From: Microthyrium microscopicum
Taxonomy: Eukaryota
Assembly (NCBI GenBank): GCA_010405405.1
Contig: MU004230.1
Coordinates: forward strand, 3,382,627-3,446,626
Direction: 5' to 3'
DNA length: 64,000 nt
Position 1 is the first letter of the stretch. Each line of letters opens with the position of its first letter. The translations under genes were made by a program, and so were the position numbers. Positions 39,909 to 48,765 of the stretch are shown one piece after another. Below the pieces are notes generated by a model. The model did not search any database and was not told where the DNA came from. It worked only from the letters and a program-made list of their open reading frames with translations.

Positions 39909-40125
39909 GTTGGGACAAAATAATTGGCGTGCCCCCATCAACTTCAAATGACTCCCATGAACGCTACTAAACCGAAGATGCTATATTTTCCATCGCGTTT
40001 GATGAACGGTGCTAGTATTAACGCCCTTTATGGGAAAGTAAGCACTCGATAGCAAAGCGTGTCATGTGGGAGTCATCAAACTCGATGGGAGCACGCCAAT
40101 TATTTTGTTCACTGATTGAGCCTCA
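39909..40125. mobile_element. Fold-back (MITE-like) element, copy 2
   Basis: Arms ACAAAATAATTGGCGTGCCCCCATC..ATGACTCCCA / TGGGAGTCAT..GATGGGAGCACGCCAATTATTTTGT; same orientation as copy 1. Confidence 0.8.
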
Positions 40126-40975: not shown

Positions 40976-41239
40976 TGGGGACGGTTCGATTCACAAAGGG
41001 GATACAATCATGAGAGTTTGGGTTTTGTTTGATTTGCATACAAAGTCCCTGCAGTGACGGAATGAATGGGCAATTTCAGGACATGCAGTCGACAAACGAT
41101 GTCGAGTAGAAATCACTGGTGGCGATCTACGCTCACAAGAAGCAGGTCTGGAAAAGTTTTTGACAATGAAAAGGTCTTGTTTAATGTCAAATGCTTCAGT
41201 GACTGTGCGAATCGTGATTCAGCTTCTGCATTTAGTAGG

Positions 41240-41469
41240 AGATACTCAACGGCATGGCAAAATAAATGGCGTACTTCCATTGACTCTAACGGTACCCAGA
41301 CGCTACGGTCTGTTATCGAGTGCTTTATTTGCCATAGAGGGCGTTCGAATTTGGAATGTTTATCAGATACAATGGCAATTAAAGCACCTTTTGGTTAGCA
41401 GCGCTGGTGGTAGCCATCAGAGTTGATGGGAGTACGCCATTTATTTTGCCATGCCGTTTTGATACTCAA
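41240..41469. mobile_element. Fold-back (MITE-like) element, copy 3 (inverted)
   Basis: Perfect 28-bp arms AACGGCATGGCAAAATAAATGGCGTACT / AGTACGCCATTTATTTTGCCATGCCGTT; the interior is the reverse complement of copies 1 and 2 (shared core CACTCGATARCA). Confidence 0.8.
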
Positions 41470-41543
41470 GCAAAAGCTAGAAATAAGGTGCCGGGAATAG
41501 CAATGGCTGTTGATGGGAGAATGCTATTAATTATTCAGTTCAA

Positions 41544-41590
41544 CACAAGTCACAAGTCACAAGTCACAAGTCACAAGTCACAAGTCACAA
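41544..41590 (+). repeat. Heptanucleotide tandem repeat (CACAAGT)6.7
   Basis: Read directly from the sequence. Confidence 0.95.
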
Positions 41591-43142
41591 TAGCACAGAA
41601 CGAAGCAATTTTTTAAAAAGTGTAGGTTAATTGACAGCTGCCTACCAGCCGTAGTGTTTCCCACCCACCACCCACTACAAAGGCACACGATACCTCAGCC
41701 ATTATTGATTCCGCATCCCATCCCTCCGCCCGCCGAGAATAGCCTGTGGGTGATAAAATCCCAAATTGAATCGTGTCAGCTAGATGGATCACGAACGTTT
41801 CTCGACCCTCTCTCGAGGCCACCACCTACAGGTTTTTGTCATGGAGTTCCAGGTCTTCTCAGAACACCAACCCGTAGTAGGCTTTGATGGTTTTTGCGGA
41901 CCAGCTTTATTGATCGTGACATCAACTGGGAGCTGCATTTGTAAGAAGTCCTGTACGACTGTACAGAGACTAGATATCGGTGGGCGATGTCCACAGCGAT
42001 ATATTTTCCTTCCTCGACTATGAGTAAAACTCAGAAAAGTAGAGAAAGATTGTTTAGTTTTGCTTGACACGCGATTGAGATCCAATCCAGGTGTGGTCGC
42101 CATCAGTATTTAGCTGGCTGAAGAAGAACTCGTGCGATTCTTGAAAGTGATGAGCCAGGTCAACTCAGCAAAGCCATGTCACGATTCTTTTGAACAGCTC
42201 GCGAGGGTTGGAAGCTTTAGTCTAGGCGAGTTTTGACATGCTCAATTAGGACCTCCTCGAAGTTGGCTTTTCAAGAAACAGAGCCAAGAACGTAAGAAAC
42301 AAGGCATTGCTGGAAAATCTGGCCGTTATCGCATAGCTCTGAGCACCAATGCTTGCATATGATCGAATTGGTGAAGTTCGATTGGATGGTATATTGAGCG
42401 GAGTGACCGCCGGGAATGAAATTCTTGATTTGTGTAGTTTTTGATTTGATCAATTGACCACGTCGTGGCAAACCGGCTAAAGGGCAAGGACGACAGCCAG
42501 AAGCTGCGTTGGTCGACAGGGAAGTCAACTAGAGAGGTTGAGAGGGGGGTTTGTTCTGGTTCAAGGCTCTTCGCTCAGTGCTGTGGGTTAAGTTGACAAT
42601 TCTGCAAGTGCTACTTTTGCAGCCCATTTCGTCGTGACAAACCTGTCAATTCGGAATGAAAGAAGGCATCATCTTTGGCTCCTACAAAAGACAGCGATAC
42701 AACCACCCGTAGAGAAAGAGGAAGAACAAGGGAAGGTGAAGGTAATCAAATGCCAGCAAAATCGGGATTTGACCTCCACCGCGAGAACAAGACTGCGAAG
42801 AATGACCTGATTATCTTCTAGTGCGCTAGCAAGTTCGCATTTACTTCAACGAACAACACACTCGAAAGCGTAGTTGTGGTAAATGGAGGCATCTTTGACG
42901 TAGAAGTATGATAGAAACCAGGTAACTGGAGAACTCTGTTGCCGTACTAGTGGGCGCAATTAGGCGAAGGACAGAGTCGCCGCAGCTGACAACGTGGAGA
43001 TGAAAAGACAATTGGCTTAGACTTGAAGTGGGAAGGCGAGAAAATGAATTTGAGTGTGAAATTCTAGAATAGTCAACGTCAGCAAAATAATCGGGAAAAG
43101 TTCGAGGCAACCTACAGGGAATGTAGTCGTGAGACTGAAGGC

Positions 43143-44218
43143 GTGCATTGATTGCATATGCTACAAGGCTCGCACAGCCTGTAGAGAATGGTTTATTGTA
43201 TGAAAGTGCTGCGAGGCAGGAGACAACACGAGTCGCTACTGAACAGTCGACTTGATCGGGGTTCGAAGCGCGAGCTTCTGGAGTGGTTCGCGAAAACCTG
43301 GTTTCATAATTCATTGGGGGGTGGTGCCCGTTTATCGGTTATGGCATAGGATACGACGCACGGCACTGCGCCGCATGGAATGGTCTTTTGTCTGGAGAAA
43401 TCGCTGTAAGTAGCAAGACAGCTGGAGTCGCAAGAATCAAGACGACTTCGATATGGTAAAACTCTTTGAACGGAGAGTTCTTGATGGATGGTGGAAGGAA
43501 TCTAGAATGAGGGAAGTTTAAAGCTGATGAGGTGTTAGTTCAGAGAAAACTGATACGTACATTGCAAGAAATGAGGCTTGATAGGCTTACTTTAATCTGA
43601 GCTGACATCTTCTCGGCAGTCCTTTTGCGTCCTATTATGTTGCATAGGCTACGAGTGGCGGAACGACGCCATATACTTTCGTAGGGGTGGTATGTTGACT
43701 GAAGTGTGACTGCGAGGAAGAAAACAGTCAACAGTCGACAAGAAATCGTCGACTGGGAAGGGTTTGGAAGCGCGAACTTCCATGTTTGGTGGGCCGTTAC
43801 TATTGCTAATAAAGACGTTTGTTTTCAAGGGGGGGCATGCCTAATCTCGATATGCACAGGATACGGTGTTCGGCACAACACCGCATGGAATGGTATATTG
43901 TCTGGAGTGGGAACCGTAAAGAGCAAGACGGTTGAGCATCAACACGCTGCGAGGAAGACATCGGCGTAGAGCTGGAGAGAGAACGAAGAAAGGTATTTGG
44001 CTATGAGAGGTTAGCAGATTGCCGAAACATCCATGATTAACTTGGAAAATGGACCTGATGGTGTTTTTGAATTGATCTCACGACCAGGGAAAGTGCTTTC
44101 TTGCATGGGCTACATATGGCAGCACGAAGCCATTGTAGAGATGGTATATTGAGAGGAACTGTCAGAGGAAAAGCTGACAGGCCTCCGCCGCGAGTGAAGA
44201 ATGTCGGCGAAGTGGAGG
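43143..44218. repeat. Array of five diverged structured units (three hairpins plus pseudoknot each); candidate ncRNA
   Basis: Units 43143..43252, 43324..43449, 43627..43755, 43837..43967 and 44093..44218 share GCAYRKG-stem-RTGGTHTDTTG and have covarying stems. Confidence 0.7.
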
Positions 44219-44814
44219 GAAGAAGAGAAGGAGGATATTCGAGGAACGAGAGATTTTATAGCGAACCAGTGTGGGTGCCAAGCCTCTAGCTTGTCATTCT
44301 TTGAGATTCCATCAAGTGATTCTGGAAGCTGCGAGTGATGTTACCTACGGTAGTCTGGTTTCTGTAGGAAAGGCAAGAGCGCTGGGTTGTGATGGCGGTC
44401 GGCAGTCGCAACCGACTGGCAAGCTCCCACCAGCGACGGGTGGCTCCCATGCAGTTAGATTTCCCTCTCCACATACAGAAGAGGATCTAGAGTATTGAAT
44501 GCGTTGAAAGTAGAACGGAACGGATGCTCTCTTTACAGTGTGGTAAACATCACGCTCGATGAGAACATCCCATTTATTTTGTTTATGGGTTGTCAACGGC
44601 ATAGCAAAATAAATGACAGCTACAGCCTCGTAGAGGTTATCATAAGGCTGAGCTAGGCCAAAGGTAGCTACCGTAAGCTCGGGCCGCCCCTCTTTTCCTC
44701 TCATCATATTACGAGTGATTATGCACATTACGCGACCACCTCAACTTCAGCAATACTGCACAATTATCCGATCAATACATTTTGCCTACATCGCCCTTGA
44801 TATGCACCATAACG

Positions 44815-45964
44815 ATGTCAAATCATACCTTTTATGCTCGTCCTTCTGTGACTTGGTCATGGCCCCCGCCGATACTACCCCCTATTAGTACTCCGAAATA
44901 TCCCAAACCTCCAGCTCCTCTCATGACAGAGAAACGCGCCGCTCCATATATTGACATGCAACCAACGCTTCATGTGGCAAATCCAGAGCTAGACAATGCT
45001 GAAAAAGAGAAATGCCTGATTGCTCCTCGAGCCGCCAACCGGCTTACAGAGTTCCAATACGGTCGTATATATGCCTATCTGGAGCTTGGATTTGATCACC
45101 CAGAAATAGCCCAAAGAGTGAAAGTCGGCAAAGAAACAGTAGCAGGAATGGCCAGGAATCTCAGGCGGCACAGCTCCGTACATCCACCATCAAAAGGTCG
45201 TCGGGGCCCAAAGTTCAAGATGACTACAGAGGATGAGGATGCGCTGTGGGAACATATGCTGGAAAATGGATGGATGCAATTGTCTGCGATGGCACGCTGG
45301 CTTTTGGAGGAGAGGGGCGTCAAGATTAATCTTTCAACAATGTCAAGACTGCTTCAAAGACGAAAATGGGATGATAGGCAATTGGAGCTGCAGCGATCAG
45401 GAAATGCAAGTACTCCCACCGGAGTCAAAAAATGGAAATCAAGGATTCGGTTTCCAGAAGCAGTAATTGTCAAGAGACGCAAGAAGGTTCCAAGGAAACC
45501 ACAAAAGCAGCAGACAATGACTCAGGCGACAAGCAACCAGCTGCCGATAAACCGGCAGTCGATAAATCAGCAGTCGATAAATCAGCAGTCGATAAATCAG
45601 CAGTCGATAAATCAGCAGTCGATAAATCAGCAGTCGATNNNNNNNNNNGCAGTCGATAAATCAGCAGTCGATAAATCAGCAGTCGATAAATCAGCAGTCG
45701 ATAAATCAGCAGTCGATAAATCAGCAGTCGATGAATCAGCAGTCGATGAATCAGCAGTCGATGAATCAACAGTCAATAAATCAGCAGTCAATGAATCAGC
45801 AGTCGATAAATAATCAGTCGAGAAATCATCAGTCGATAATTAAGCAGTCGCTACATCAGCAGACGCCGAATCAGCAGTCGATGAATCAACAGACGATGAA
45901 TCAACATACCTTGAGCCGAGATATGATGAGTCTGGCGACCGCAGCTGGCTGGAGCAACTACTGA
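44815..45964 (+). CDS. Tc1/IS630-like paired helix-turn-helix protein without DDE domain, with INQQS repeats; frame interrupted only by an assembly gap
   Basis: HPEIAQRVKVGKETV, GRRGPKFKMT and MARWLLEERGVKINLSTMSRLLQRRKW resemble the transposase DNA-binding region. The repeat frame resumes after the Ns and ends at TGA 45962-45964. Confidence 0.7.
45535..45905 (+). repeat. 15-bp coding minisatellite (AATCAGCAGTCGATR)n containing an N gap at 45639..45648
   Basis: Read directly; true copy number unknown because of the gap. Confidence 0.95.
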
Positions 45965-48765
45965 ACATTCTATTTCCACTGTGCGATCATTCTAGTATCT
46001 GGCAGCTTTACCAGCCCATACTTATCTTGATAAACTTTCCGCTGTATTGTTGATATCACTCAGAGATACATCCATCGTAATCTGGCGGTCGTGCATGTCC
46101 TTCCTTGGCAAGTGTTCGTCAACGACACTCGATTTCAAAAAGGCTTGAACGACAGCCTCAACCGCACTGCAAAGAGTTTGCACTATGGGGAAATATACTT
46201 GCTGCAGCTTCAAGCTCTTATGCAATGGCTTCAAGGATCCTCGAACTGCCGATATCAGGAGAGTGTCGAATTCACTGTTTTATTGTGACAGATCAACTCT
46301 GAGTGAAGCTGCTTCGAGGCTGCGGGAACTTCTAAGGACACATACCTGTTAGTGATGTAACTGACACAGTCGCCCACAAAATGAAGGATGTAGGATCAAC
46401 TCATCGTTGCAACAGGATTGAGCATCAATGGACCAAAAGACTAGCATGATCCTCCAGCTTAGTGTATTCCATCAGTCTAGCGCTATTCTCCATAGTCCTA
46501 TGTATGATAGGACATAAGTTTTGTTGAGCGGGCCGCCTGTTCGTCCCCCCAGTCAAATTGCAATTGCATGGTTTCGAGTTTGGACGAGTTGCTGCTGTTA
46601 ATTCTTACTTGAATGATACTACTCTACATTAAAAACAATAGCAAACATCAAAACTAGAAAAAGTCCTCCTTTTAGCAATGGAAGTTAGAGATTAGTCTTT
46701 ATCCTCCGGATTTACGTGCTCAGCCCATTGGCCAGCAAGACATCTAATTGGCCACACATACTCCACAAGCTGTCCGTATTGGAGATGCGCCTCTCCTAAA
46801 CAGGCAAGTCAACGATCTTAAGTAGCGTTTTGAGACGCCAACACAGCTAAACAAGTCTGGAGAAAGGAACCCAACTTGGACTAGCCTAGCTTTCTGATTG
46901 GACGTTGGATGAGGCTCAGATCCATTTTACGAGTTCTGGATCACGTCAAGGCGCCCGGCAAAGCTAGAGGCCGCGGAACTTGCAAGTCTTGGGTTTTGGG
47001 GCGTTGCAGCCGGTTGCACGTTTGCTTGTCTTGGAAATTGCTTGGTTCAGAGCCCCTGATGGACAAGAATGAGGCTATTTTACTCATCAAATGATCGAAA
47101 CTAATTACAATCTTGTGGGCGTTATGAAGCGCTTCGGGCTTGGCTGAAAGGTGTTGGTCTTTTGAAGTTCTAAAAAATTTCTCTGGTCCGGACTTTCAAG
47201 AGGGAACAATCAGGCTGGGGAAAAATTGTTCATGTTTTCAGCTCTACGCAAGGTGCATCGGTAACATCCGCAAGCTCAAACTTGGCGCAATTATTTTTGT
47301 TGATTTAGAGTCCAGACAAAGTGACTGAAATGTTTCATGCTTTGATCGAGTAACCAGGTTGATATCGTGGCTGCATAATTTGGCAAGCTGGCCCCATAAC
47401 GGCGTATTGTGCAATTTTAGAGGGTAATTACCAATGACAACCCAACACTTCAAGTTGAAGAATGATCATCACTACCATATATATCAGGTATGACGATAAA
47501 TAGACTAGGGTTCCCGAATTATCTATTAAGCTTAATAGGAATAAGCGATCTCTGAATCCTAATGGAATAATAAGACAGGGAGGTGTCATATATTGGAGCA
47601 AATGGATATGGTTCTTACAAGGCTGAGAAGGGCTCAATTGACAGGGTCTAGACTTGAGGAACCAGGGAACAGAGATGGATCTGGAGGAAAGAAGGTGCAT
47701 AAATTCTCACGCTTAGGTATGCAGGTTTCGTCTCTAAGACTAAACTTCAATACGGTCACTTCATATGAGCAGCCTAGCAGGTTGACAATTACAACAGGCT
47801 GGCAAAGGGCGATGGATTTGAGGGTACAAGACTTGAGGAGTGGTGTTGAACTTTGAAGGAGCTTGTCAGGCTGATTTATGCCAGACGTGATGTTTGGTTT
47901 GACAAAAACGGTTTCATTGATCTTGTCCTTCCATACCTACTTTACTCTTAGCTGTATCACTACCAGCCTGATTCTGGCTAAGAGGCAGAATGGAATCAAC
48001 GTTGTATCATTCCAGTGAACTCGAACGAATCTACTTCCTGCCGTTAAACTAGAATACGACATGTGTAATTTCAGTACAAGTTGCAACATATGACAGAATT
48101 TTACAAACCAAGGATGTCAAGAAAGCCCAAGGATTCAACAGGGCCTAGCTCAACATGCACCCCAAGAAAGTGGTAGGAACAGTGCAGGATGGCTTAAGCC
48201 TCATCAAGCTGAAGCGTCTCTCAGAATGGTTCTGGTCACTGGGCGGCGGAGTGGGTCTGGTGAAGAATAAAAATAAATAATACAGACCCCTCAACCTGTT
48301 GGCGGCCCATGTCTCCCGTCCACACCCCTATTGTAATGCTTGCTGCGGATCCTGCGCATTACAATTGAAGTCATTTACCTGAGTGTATTTTCTAGAGCTT
48401 GGGAACAAGGGTTGAGCAAGTTGTAAACATCATCATCTTCAGGTTCTTGGTGTTGAGGTTTGCTGGATCAATATCTACATGTACAGTAGCATTCCTCAGA
48501 TCTAAGGAAGGAACAACGGATCTCAAAACGTGCAAAGCCACGACTCCCACGCGCCCCCCTTCCATCGCTCTTTCCTCCCTTACGACGCAAGCAACAAGCG
48601 GTCATCACTACTACACTAATATACCCCAAAGCCATACTTCTTCTTCTCCGCTTGATTGTCTTCATCTCTTCTCTTAACTGCGCGGTGTTACTTCTCAACT
48701 CTCGTTTCTGCCTTCTTTCCTCCGAATCCTCCGCCGCCGCTGCGTCCGTCTCACATTTTTTTGCC

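Follow-up and report, generated by a model that had tools for sequence, protein, structure and literature searches.

A candidate structured non-coding RNA built of six hairpin units in the fungus Microthyrium microscopicum

Why should the arms of a series of hairpins change their letters from copy to copy and still pair? The question is raised by a locus in a 64,000-nucleotide stretch (the window) of Microthyrium microscopicum contig MU004230.1 (GenBank assembly GCA_010405405.1, positions 3,382,627 to 3,446,626). The original prediction, made from the letters of the window, described at 43143..44218 a five-unit array of a covarying three-hairpin motif with a pseudoknot, and took it for an undescribed structured RNA of unresolved strand. 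Positions below are those of the window, and the hairpins of a unit are called H1 to H4. We found that the array is not free-standing. It forms exons of a spliced transcript of at least 2.7 kb without a long open reading frame (ORF), and its H1 hairpins covary strongly among six paralogous units. The locus looks like a new structured non-coding RNA, known from one genome.

Transcript, introns and coding potential

The array is covered by a contig of sequencing run X5 (record 16). The run contains 0.84 of the sampled words of 43100-44260, and the likely source runs contain 1.00. When we counted the 31-mers lying wholly in exons of this interval, we obtained 934 of 1131 (0.83), which matches the share in X5. 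The printed pieces of record 16 (41729-43063, 43591-44000 and 44055-44587) have no differences from the genome. Positions 533 and 534 of the record join 44055 to 44000, so that 44001-44054 is absent, while its positions 944-1351 (408 letters) correspond to 43064-43590 (527 bases), so that 119 further bases are absent. The resulting exon lengths add up to the exact length of the contig (533+410+408+1335 = 2686). DNA contigs of runs X1 and X3 (records 4 and 12) cross all three introns ungapped. The transcript and its introns are as follows.

41729..44587, minus strand: transcript contig (X5 record 16), 2686 nt without its three introns; these are the limits of the contig, not mapped ends.
44001..44054, minus strand: intron 1, 54 nt, GTCCAT...CTAAC...ATAG; direct junction in record 16.
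43524..43590, minus strand: intron 2, 67 nt, GTAAGC...CTAAC...CAG; deduced from the piece boundary at 43591, the GT..AG ends, the length sum and the 0.84 word share.
43064..43115, minus strand: intron 3, 52 nt, GTAGGT...CTGAC...TAG; deduced from the boundary at 43063, the sequence and the sum 67+52 = 119.
Exon map in RNA direction: exon 1 with unit A''; intron 1; exon 2 with B' and A'; intron 2; exon 3 with B and A; intron 3; exon 4 with relics and A0.

A branch-site-like CTAAC or CTGAC stands shortly before the AG in all three introns. Since all three are GT..AG on the minus strand only, the array lies in the exons of a spliced minus-strand transcript, and three such precise removals are hard to explain otherwise than by splicing of a minus-strand RNA. 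The original prediction had named transcription as a check and had left the strand unresolved. The X5 contig covers the array without the three GT..AG segments, and the strand can now be given as minus. Bins without X5 cover lie on both sides of the locus; we did not use them as evidence.

The transcript is apparently non-coding. In the spliced RNA the longest stop-to-stop frame spans 131 codons, of which codon 80 is the first ATG, and the longest ORF starting with ATG (104 amino acids, 42103-41792) lies outside the array. The claim that no reading frame is conserved across units held: no frame runs through more than one unit of the spliced RNA, and the frames of the array match no Pfam family, with one chance-level match at E 0.04.

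Units, hairpins and covariation

In RNA direction, the array consists of the following units.

44088..44222, minus strand: unit A'', exon 1; core 44088-44160; H1 44110-44138, its loop pairing with 44093-44097; H2 44159-44180; H3 44182-44218; all pairs Watson-Crick.
43833..43967, minus strand: unit B', exon 2; core 43833-43909; H1 43861-43886 (10 bp, one G.U on minus), its loop pairing with 43838-43841; H2 43912-43933; H3 43944-43967.
43614..43781, minus strand: unit A', exon 2; core 43614-43706; H1 43649-43684 (6+6 bp with an internal loop), loop-to-flank pairing imperfect; H2 43707-43730; H3 43732-43755; H4 43766-43781.
43319..43449, minus strand: unit B, exon 3; core 43319-43399; H1 43351-43376 (10 bp, two G.U on minus), its loop pairing with 43324-43328; H2 43403-43422; H3 43424-43449.
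43139..43278, minus strand: unit A, exon 3; core 43139-43207; H1 43161-43184, its loop pairing with 43143-43146; H2 43206-43229; H3 43230-43253; H4 43265-43278.
42331..42410, minus strand: unit A0, exon 4, the sixth unit; H1 42362-42382 (6 bp), its loop 42368-42373 pairing with 42344-42349 (6 bp); a short H2 42398-42410.

The five predicted units stand where they were placed, but their number and extent had been set too low: A0 lies beyond the range first described, and the array reaches down to about 42331. An nhmmer profile made from the five units gave a weak extra match at 42384-42416 (E 0.019), which belongs to A0. The composite pattern GCAYRKG-N18-45-TGGTNTNTT, searched on both strands of the 64 kb, has six matches, all in plus orientation between 42355 and 44103; five fall in the units already described and one at 42355. 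The A0 core carries the TGCATATG box and a linker with TGGTATATTG.

Covariance models gave the same set of units. The first model (R1) was built from B and B' only, and an unfiltered search of the window with it recovered A (E 2.8e-4), A' (0.032), A0 (1.6) and A'' (7.8). A second model (R2), built from five units with A'' held out, found A'' at 32 bits (E 5e-5). It scored the six units at 32-84 bits, with A0 at 49.8 bits, and its best match outside the array, on both strands of the 64 kb, reached 12.7 bits (E 0.65). Decayed relics that the models left unscored can be seen by eye between 42680 and 42900, for example GTAG...TGGTAAAT near 42870-42890 and CTAC...GTAG AGA at 42683-42722.

A base-by-base check found every predicted helix in place, and 129 of the 137 stem pairs in the six units are Watson-Crick. 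Since MAFFT did not bring the H1 arms of the units into one register, pairs were counted in model-based alignments instead. On the RNA strand of the model-fitted six-unit alignment, all 51 H1 cells with letters form standard pairs. Eight of the ten H1 pairs have changed on both sides (14 cells), and 13 further pair types occur. None of 500 shuffles reached any of the five covariation measures, and when the partner was slid by one to three columns, only 12-58% of the cells remained paired. The H1 stem is spelled differently in each of A0, A, A', A'' and the B pair. Even between B and B', where seven of 20 H1 stem positions differ, all ten pairs are kept, and H2 has two double changes. The selection on a folded single-stranded nucleic acid proposed in the original prediction is therefore supported by H1.

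When RNAalifold was given exons 2 and 3 only, it recovered H1, H2, H3 and H4, with 10 of 48 pairs compensated. The hairpin segments were also compared with shuffled sequences (2000 shuffles for each H1 segment). The Fisher combined p values were 1e-8 on the minus and 6e-8 on the plus strand for H1, 1e-6 and 2e-5 for H2, and 1e-4 and 9e-5 for H3; these values are generous, as the segment ends were picked after the hairpins had been seen and the units are paralogous. Perfect hairpins with stems of at least 6 bp number 14 in 42330-44225, the highest count in the window, against a mean of 5.0 (standard deviation 2.6) per equal-size window. Three more perfect 6-bp hairpins lie in the transcript outside the units (42602-42622, 43046-43064 and 43460-43479), and one of them abuts the acceptor of intron 3. 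Sites for zinc-cluster or other dimeric DNA-binding proteins were considered as a cause of the inverted repeats and rejected on the reasoning that complementarity is maintained although the half-site letters vary from unit to unit.

H2 and H3 appear to be copies of a single type of hairpin, since A' H2 and B' H3 have a 12-mer in common (UCUUCCUCGCAG on the RNA strand, at 43710-43721 and 43947-43958). It lies at the loop-to-stem junction of both hairpins and, as a stretch of pyrimidines closing with CAG, resembles a splice acceptor; a close variant occurs in A at 43209-43225.

The H1 loop was said to pair with a segment upstream, with covariation. The complementarity was confirmed: all 29 loop-to-flank pairs are Watson-Crick, although those of A' require a bulge and overlap with the stem. 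The longest complements measure 6 nt in A0, 4 in A, 3 in A', 5 in A'', 5 in B and 4 in B'. The combined Fisher p value is about 0.025 (A0 alone has p 0.03), compared with 0.93 for control windows of equal size on the other side of the hairpin and 0.9997 for those 100 nt away. The covariation is weaker than was implied. GUGC/GCAC is common to four of the six units, and A' has no contiguous match longer than 3 nt. Because four units use the same letters, real covariation comes only from A0, whose loop and flank letters are unlike those of the other units, and from the fifth pair in B versus A''. In A0 and A'' the geometry suits a classical H-type knot.

The array is an old tandem duplication. 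Direct repeats at a spacing of 501-510 bp are still found between 43344-43424 and 43854-43934 (81 nt, 74%), between 43231-43278 and 43733-43780 (48 nt, 71%), and, as the shortest pair, between 43209-43225 and 43710-43726 (17 nt, 82%). Tandem Repeats Finder does not call the duplication, which fits the low overall identity of the blocks: when the two full blocks are aligned, 241 of 431 positions are identical (56%). The differences comprise 78 transitions and 112 transversions, which is evidence against repeat-induced point mutation, known by its transition bias, and this source of divergence was rejected. The cores of B and B' are 81% identical, and all six units agree in eight letters of the CAAnAnACCA box. 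Since boxes and stems are kept and the spacer is nearly randomised, both stand out from it. Introns 1 and 2 have an acceptor region in common, intron 2 being paralogous to intron 1 at its 3' end, so that the duplicated block consists of an exon and an intron.

Proposed reading and its alternatives

That the locus produces a spliced non-coding transcript with selected hairpins is very probable. For the locus as a whole, the best explanation we can offer, at even chances, is a spliced non-coding RNA built of duplicated modules and acting as a platform. Tandem duplication of a block of one exon and a short intron would have produced the six recognisable copies and the decayed relics. In the 5' to 3' direction of the RNA, a module would begin with a short hairpin or a pair of them (stems of 5-8 bp, loops rich in pyrimidines), followed by a conserved, presumably unpaired box with the consensus CAAnAnACCAy. 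Next would come H1 (6-12 bp), in which the letters vary by unit and pairing is kept, and then a second conserved box, YMUAUGCA. A short stretch 12-22 nt beyond this box could pair with the H1 loop and form an H-type pseudoknot. The folded frame might thus offer six copies of the unpaired boxes to a single partner, either a protein or a small RNA, which the RNA would hold or titrate, as NORAD does for Pumilio.

A multivalent binding platform is favoured since the two unpaired boxes and the existence of the hairpins, though not their letters, have been kept in six old copies. We infer from this conservation that the boxes are binding sites, as we infer the pseudoknot and the effect on a partner; a multivalent platform or decoy as the mechanism is a tentative suggestion that may well prove wrong.

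Several observations weigh against this reading. The RNA label of X5 is a tool's guess, and the run is labelled with a different organism. Introns 2 and 3 rest on arithmetic, as the exon-3 piece is absent from the printed table, and contigs are strandless. The H1 alignment was fitted to the structure, which favours pairing, and the units are paralogues, which overstates their independence; all covariation is among paralogues of one genome. Whole cores fold with weak z-scores, between -0.3 and -2.0 on the minus strand and between +0.85 and -1.5 on the plus strand, which leave the strand undecided. The pseudoknot is plausible and suggestive at p about 0.025, with the same letters in four units and no proper match in A', and in three units no spacer nucleotide precedes its second stem. 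The main facts that fit a simple minus-strand RNA poorly are the equal split of wobbles between the strands and the imperfect H3. Four stem pairs are G.T on the plus strand only and A.C on the minus strand: one in the H3 of each of units A, B and B', and the pair that opens the inner H1 stem of A'. Another four are G.U on the minus strand and A.C on plus; three of them are in H1, two in that of B and one in that of B', and the fourth is in H2 of A. The wobbles, said in the original prediction to favour different strands in different helices, do so four against four; they do not favour the RNA strand overall, and H3 is imperfect on the transcribed strand.

Among the protein-binding motifs tried, none fits the RNA strand, which also counts against this reading. 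UNAAAC occurs twice, and UCUUG occurs ten times, which is unremarkable for a pyrimidine-rich strand; the Pumilio element UGURUAUA, its consensus taken from PMC4947167, is absent from both strands. The telomerase template strings CCCTAA and longer, searched on the assumption of TTAGGG telomeres, are likewise absent from both strands of the transcript.

We next weighed other explanations. The one that survives best, although we consider it rather improbable, is a precursor of small stable RNAs, in which the transcript would be a host or polycistronic precursor and the modules would be cut out of it, as snoRNA-like molecules or another class. The units are modular and of small-RNA size, and conserved boxes flank the hairpin. 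Fungi carry snoRNAs both in spliced host genes that code for no protein and in polycistronic clusters. An AnACCA fitting the H box of H/ACA snoRNAs (ANANNA) stands 2-5 nt 5' of H1 in all six units; this pattern is loose and the evidence weak. The ACA box, however, is found within 30 nt after H1 only in A' (at +8) and is missing from the other five units. A pseudouridylation pocket is absent as well: in B and B' the 10-bp stem of H1 is continuous, in A and A'' a single nucleotide bulges out of it, and only A' has a one-sided loop of 6 nt. For C/D snoRNAs, the C box RUGAUGA does not occur on the RNA strand of 41729-44587; it occurs once on the plus strand, at 42147 and outside the units, and no pair of C and D boxes was found. 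The units are exonic, and the introns, at 52-67 nt, are too short for a snoRNA. The contig is unbroken through all units, though contigs cannot exclude processing.

No Rfam snoRNA family matched at E values up to 10. In the whole window, Rfam 15, which presumably includes many motifs of fungal structured-RNA surveys, gave no match at the gathering threshold. At E up to 10, the region 41500-44900 gave four matches, all at chance level and each either outside the units or on the plus strand: TLS-PK4 with 16.5 bits (threshold 80), PVT1_3 with 11.8 (45), Plastid-rpl16 with 17.4 (43) and Hairpin with 14.7 (65). The family that could not be recognised from the letters was thus not recognised by Rfam either.

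There is little chance that the array is a neutral relic, that is, an old duplication in which the palindromes were kept by template switching at the DNA level or by chance, and the transcript is noise from a divergent promoter. Such a palindrome would be expected to collect transitions without regard to strand, which is what the four-to-four division of non-Watson-Crick pairs looks like. The ordinary z-scores of whole cores point the same way, as does the lack of relatives in pattern scans of metagenome and viral contigs; the locus is, moreover, flanked by repeats and by a gene with a weak transposase-like helix-turn-helix (HTH). Copying from arm to arm cannot explain, however, why the unpaired boxes are nearly invariant in six units whose spacers are now about as dissimilar as unrelated sequences. 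H1 pairs in every cell on the RNA strand, each of the three introns has preserved its GT, branch site and AG, and the ratio of transitions to transversions is unlike that left by repeat-induced point mutation.

It is very doubtful that the plus strand is the functional one, as an unspliced antisense RNA or as the long leader of the gene at 44719-45813, with purine-rich loops. The G.U pairs that exist only there, in three H3 stems and in A', would fit such an RNA, whole-unit folds are lower in energy on this strand, and UGCAU occurs six times on it within 41729-44587 compared with two on minus. Against this, the introns are GT..AG on minus only, and a plus-strand RNA would have A.C mismatches in H1 of B (two) and B' (one) and in H2 of A (one). 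The lower energies fit the G-richness of the strand (GC skew +0.22), its core z-scores are weaker than those of minus, and the X5 contigs of the array and of the neighbouring gene are separate.

An array of self-cleaving ribozymes, a nuclease-resistant element or the end of a mobile RNA, all suggested in the original prediction, is highly implausible. Tandem structured units with a possible pseudoknot do resemble such arrays, and some ribozymes and viral resistant elements are arranged in tandem. No ribozyme, exonuclease-resistant RNA (xrRNA) or tRNA-like family was significant, however, and no model of the ribozyme families (hammerhead, HDV-like, twister, pistol, hatchet, hairpin) matched in the units at E up to 10. 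The best matches were TLS-PK4, at E 2.1 and on the strand that is not transcribed, and Hairpin, which lies outside the units and has E 9.1. The sole CUGAUGA (43524, plus) is the 3' end of intron 2, its acceptor region, read backwards, and the contig continues through six units without a break. Viral contigs gave no matches to the two exact-letter patterns searched, and the word depth of the array contig is about that of the flanking contigs, a weak measure.

A decayed protein-coding repeat, which a 164-codon minus-strand frame over unit A (42841-43335) could suggest and which had been named as a check, is barely credible, since intron 3 (52 nt, not a multiple of three) splits the frame, its translation has one weak match (E 4e-4, five short stretches of a 2044-amino-acid protein) among 1.84 billion representatives, and the substitutions preserve base pairing, not codons.

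The platform reading can also be taken further, to a new fungal family of RNA domains with pseudoknots, conserved beyond the species and with a specific partner or activity, of which this array would be the founding example. We regard this as unlikely, though less so than any of the alternatives above. The RNA may in that case be a NORAD-type decoy for an RNA-binding protein or a small RNA, or a domain tied to splicing; the latter is conceivable since the next 5' splice site lies 27 nt downstream of the H1 loop partner in A, 37 nt in A' and 38 nt in A''. If the family is real, the transcript would be one of very few long non-coding RNAs (lncRNAs) with statistically supported secondary structure. 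To our knowledge, well-supported conserved lncRNA structure is rare, and almost nothing of the kind has been described for filamentous fungi. Six diverged copies in one transcript make an internal record of covariation, with a defined strand, an exon map and two boxes that can be mutated. If orthologues exist, this would mean a new RNA family and a fungal decoy or scaffold built of repeats; if they do not, it is a species-specific curiosity.

Two patterns, one of the B-type box and one an A-type composite, gave no matches in metagenome and viral contigs; they require exact letters at 20-24 positions and would miss diverged relatives, and the collections scanned include no fungal genome collection. 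The air-metagenome run X6 (word share 0.05) contains a 167-nt contig over 44060-44223 that is about 95% identical to A'', with seven other letters and one gap. This means that a close relative of the fungus carries the unit; we did not use it for covariation or habitat. We found no description of such an array in fungi in the open-access literature searched.

Neighbouring features and comparison with known systems

The gene content of the window is fungal, with Pfam matches to an XRN 5'-3' exonuclease, NPL4, a Vezatin-type peroxisome protein, a UCH deubiquitinase, Sel1 repeats and an amino-acid permease; the 64 kb contain no tRNA genes. On the 3' side, the lncRNA contig is ended by a dispersed high-copy repeat, which occupies 41208-41608 and 39913-40110 with a summed DNA-run word depth of about 100 and 5 times the flanks, respectively. 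Many variant contigs and joints between opposite strands at 41297-41419 suggest a small foldback or MITE-like family. A perfect (CACAAGT)n microsatellite of 6.7 copies lies at 41544-41590.

The divergent neighbour at 44719-45813 (plus strand) appears to be expressed, with X5 contigs at 44863-45575 and 45739-46627. Its frame ends in tandem pentapeptide repeats (QSINQ, then SAVDK) encoded by a 15-nt repeat at 45545-45903, and ten N at 45639-45648 are probably an assembly gap. Its Pfam matches are weak and below threshold (Extensin_1, E 1.5e-5; HTH_32, homeodomain-like, E 7e-4).

Several known systems resemble the array in part. With H/ACA snoRNAs it has in common the order of hairpin, hinge box ANANNA and hairpin, and the setting in a spliced non-coding transcript. 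It differs from them in lacking ACA in five of six units and a pocket in B and B', in its exonic units and in having no Rfam match.

The A-repeat of Xist and the roX-box stem-loops of Drosophila have units of about 25-50 nt with conserved stem letters and act in dosage compensation. Like these, the array consists of tandem short structured elements in a spliced lncRNA, where each copy would offer the same protein-binding surface. Its units are longer (75-140 nt), its stem letters are free and its conserved letters lie in unpaired boxes, and it belongs to another host kingdom and has no dosage-compensation context.

The structured-RNA motifs reported for fungi (PMC5640933, PMC8216456) are like the array in being non-coding elements of fungal genomes supported by covariation. 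Neither main text contains the words tandem, repeat or multiple copies, and some of the motifs may overlap with the units described here.

The closest likeness is in the architecture of NORAD, which is not known to contain introns. In the array, a small intron follows each of the first three exons, two of which carry one B-A pair each, and the long covarying hairpin with its possible pseudoknot is a further difference; no sequence homology is seen or expected. According to PMC4947167, each of the 12 units of NORAD, about 300 nt long, combines linear motifs bound by proteins with a 4-bp stem-loop preserved through compensating changes, a stretch rich in U and a stem-loop of 8-9 bp. The array differs in lacking the Pumilio element, in its fungal rather than mammalian host and in having six units, not twelve, so that the likeness is architectural only. 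Both are long transcripts without a convincing ORF that arose by internal duplication, and in both each unit combines linear motifs with compensated short stem-loops, in copies so diverged that no stretch is identical across them. The array thus shows the features of the class of repeat-built structured lncRNAs: it is transcribed, has no long ORF, and is composed of tandem units with conserved motifs and compensated stems.

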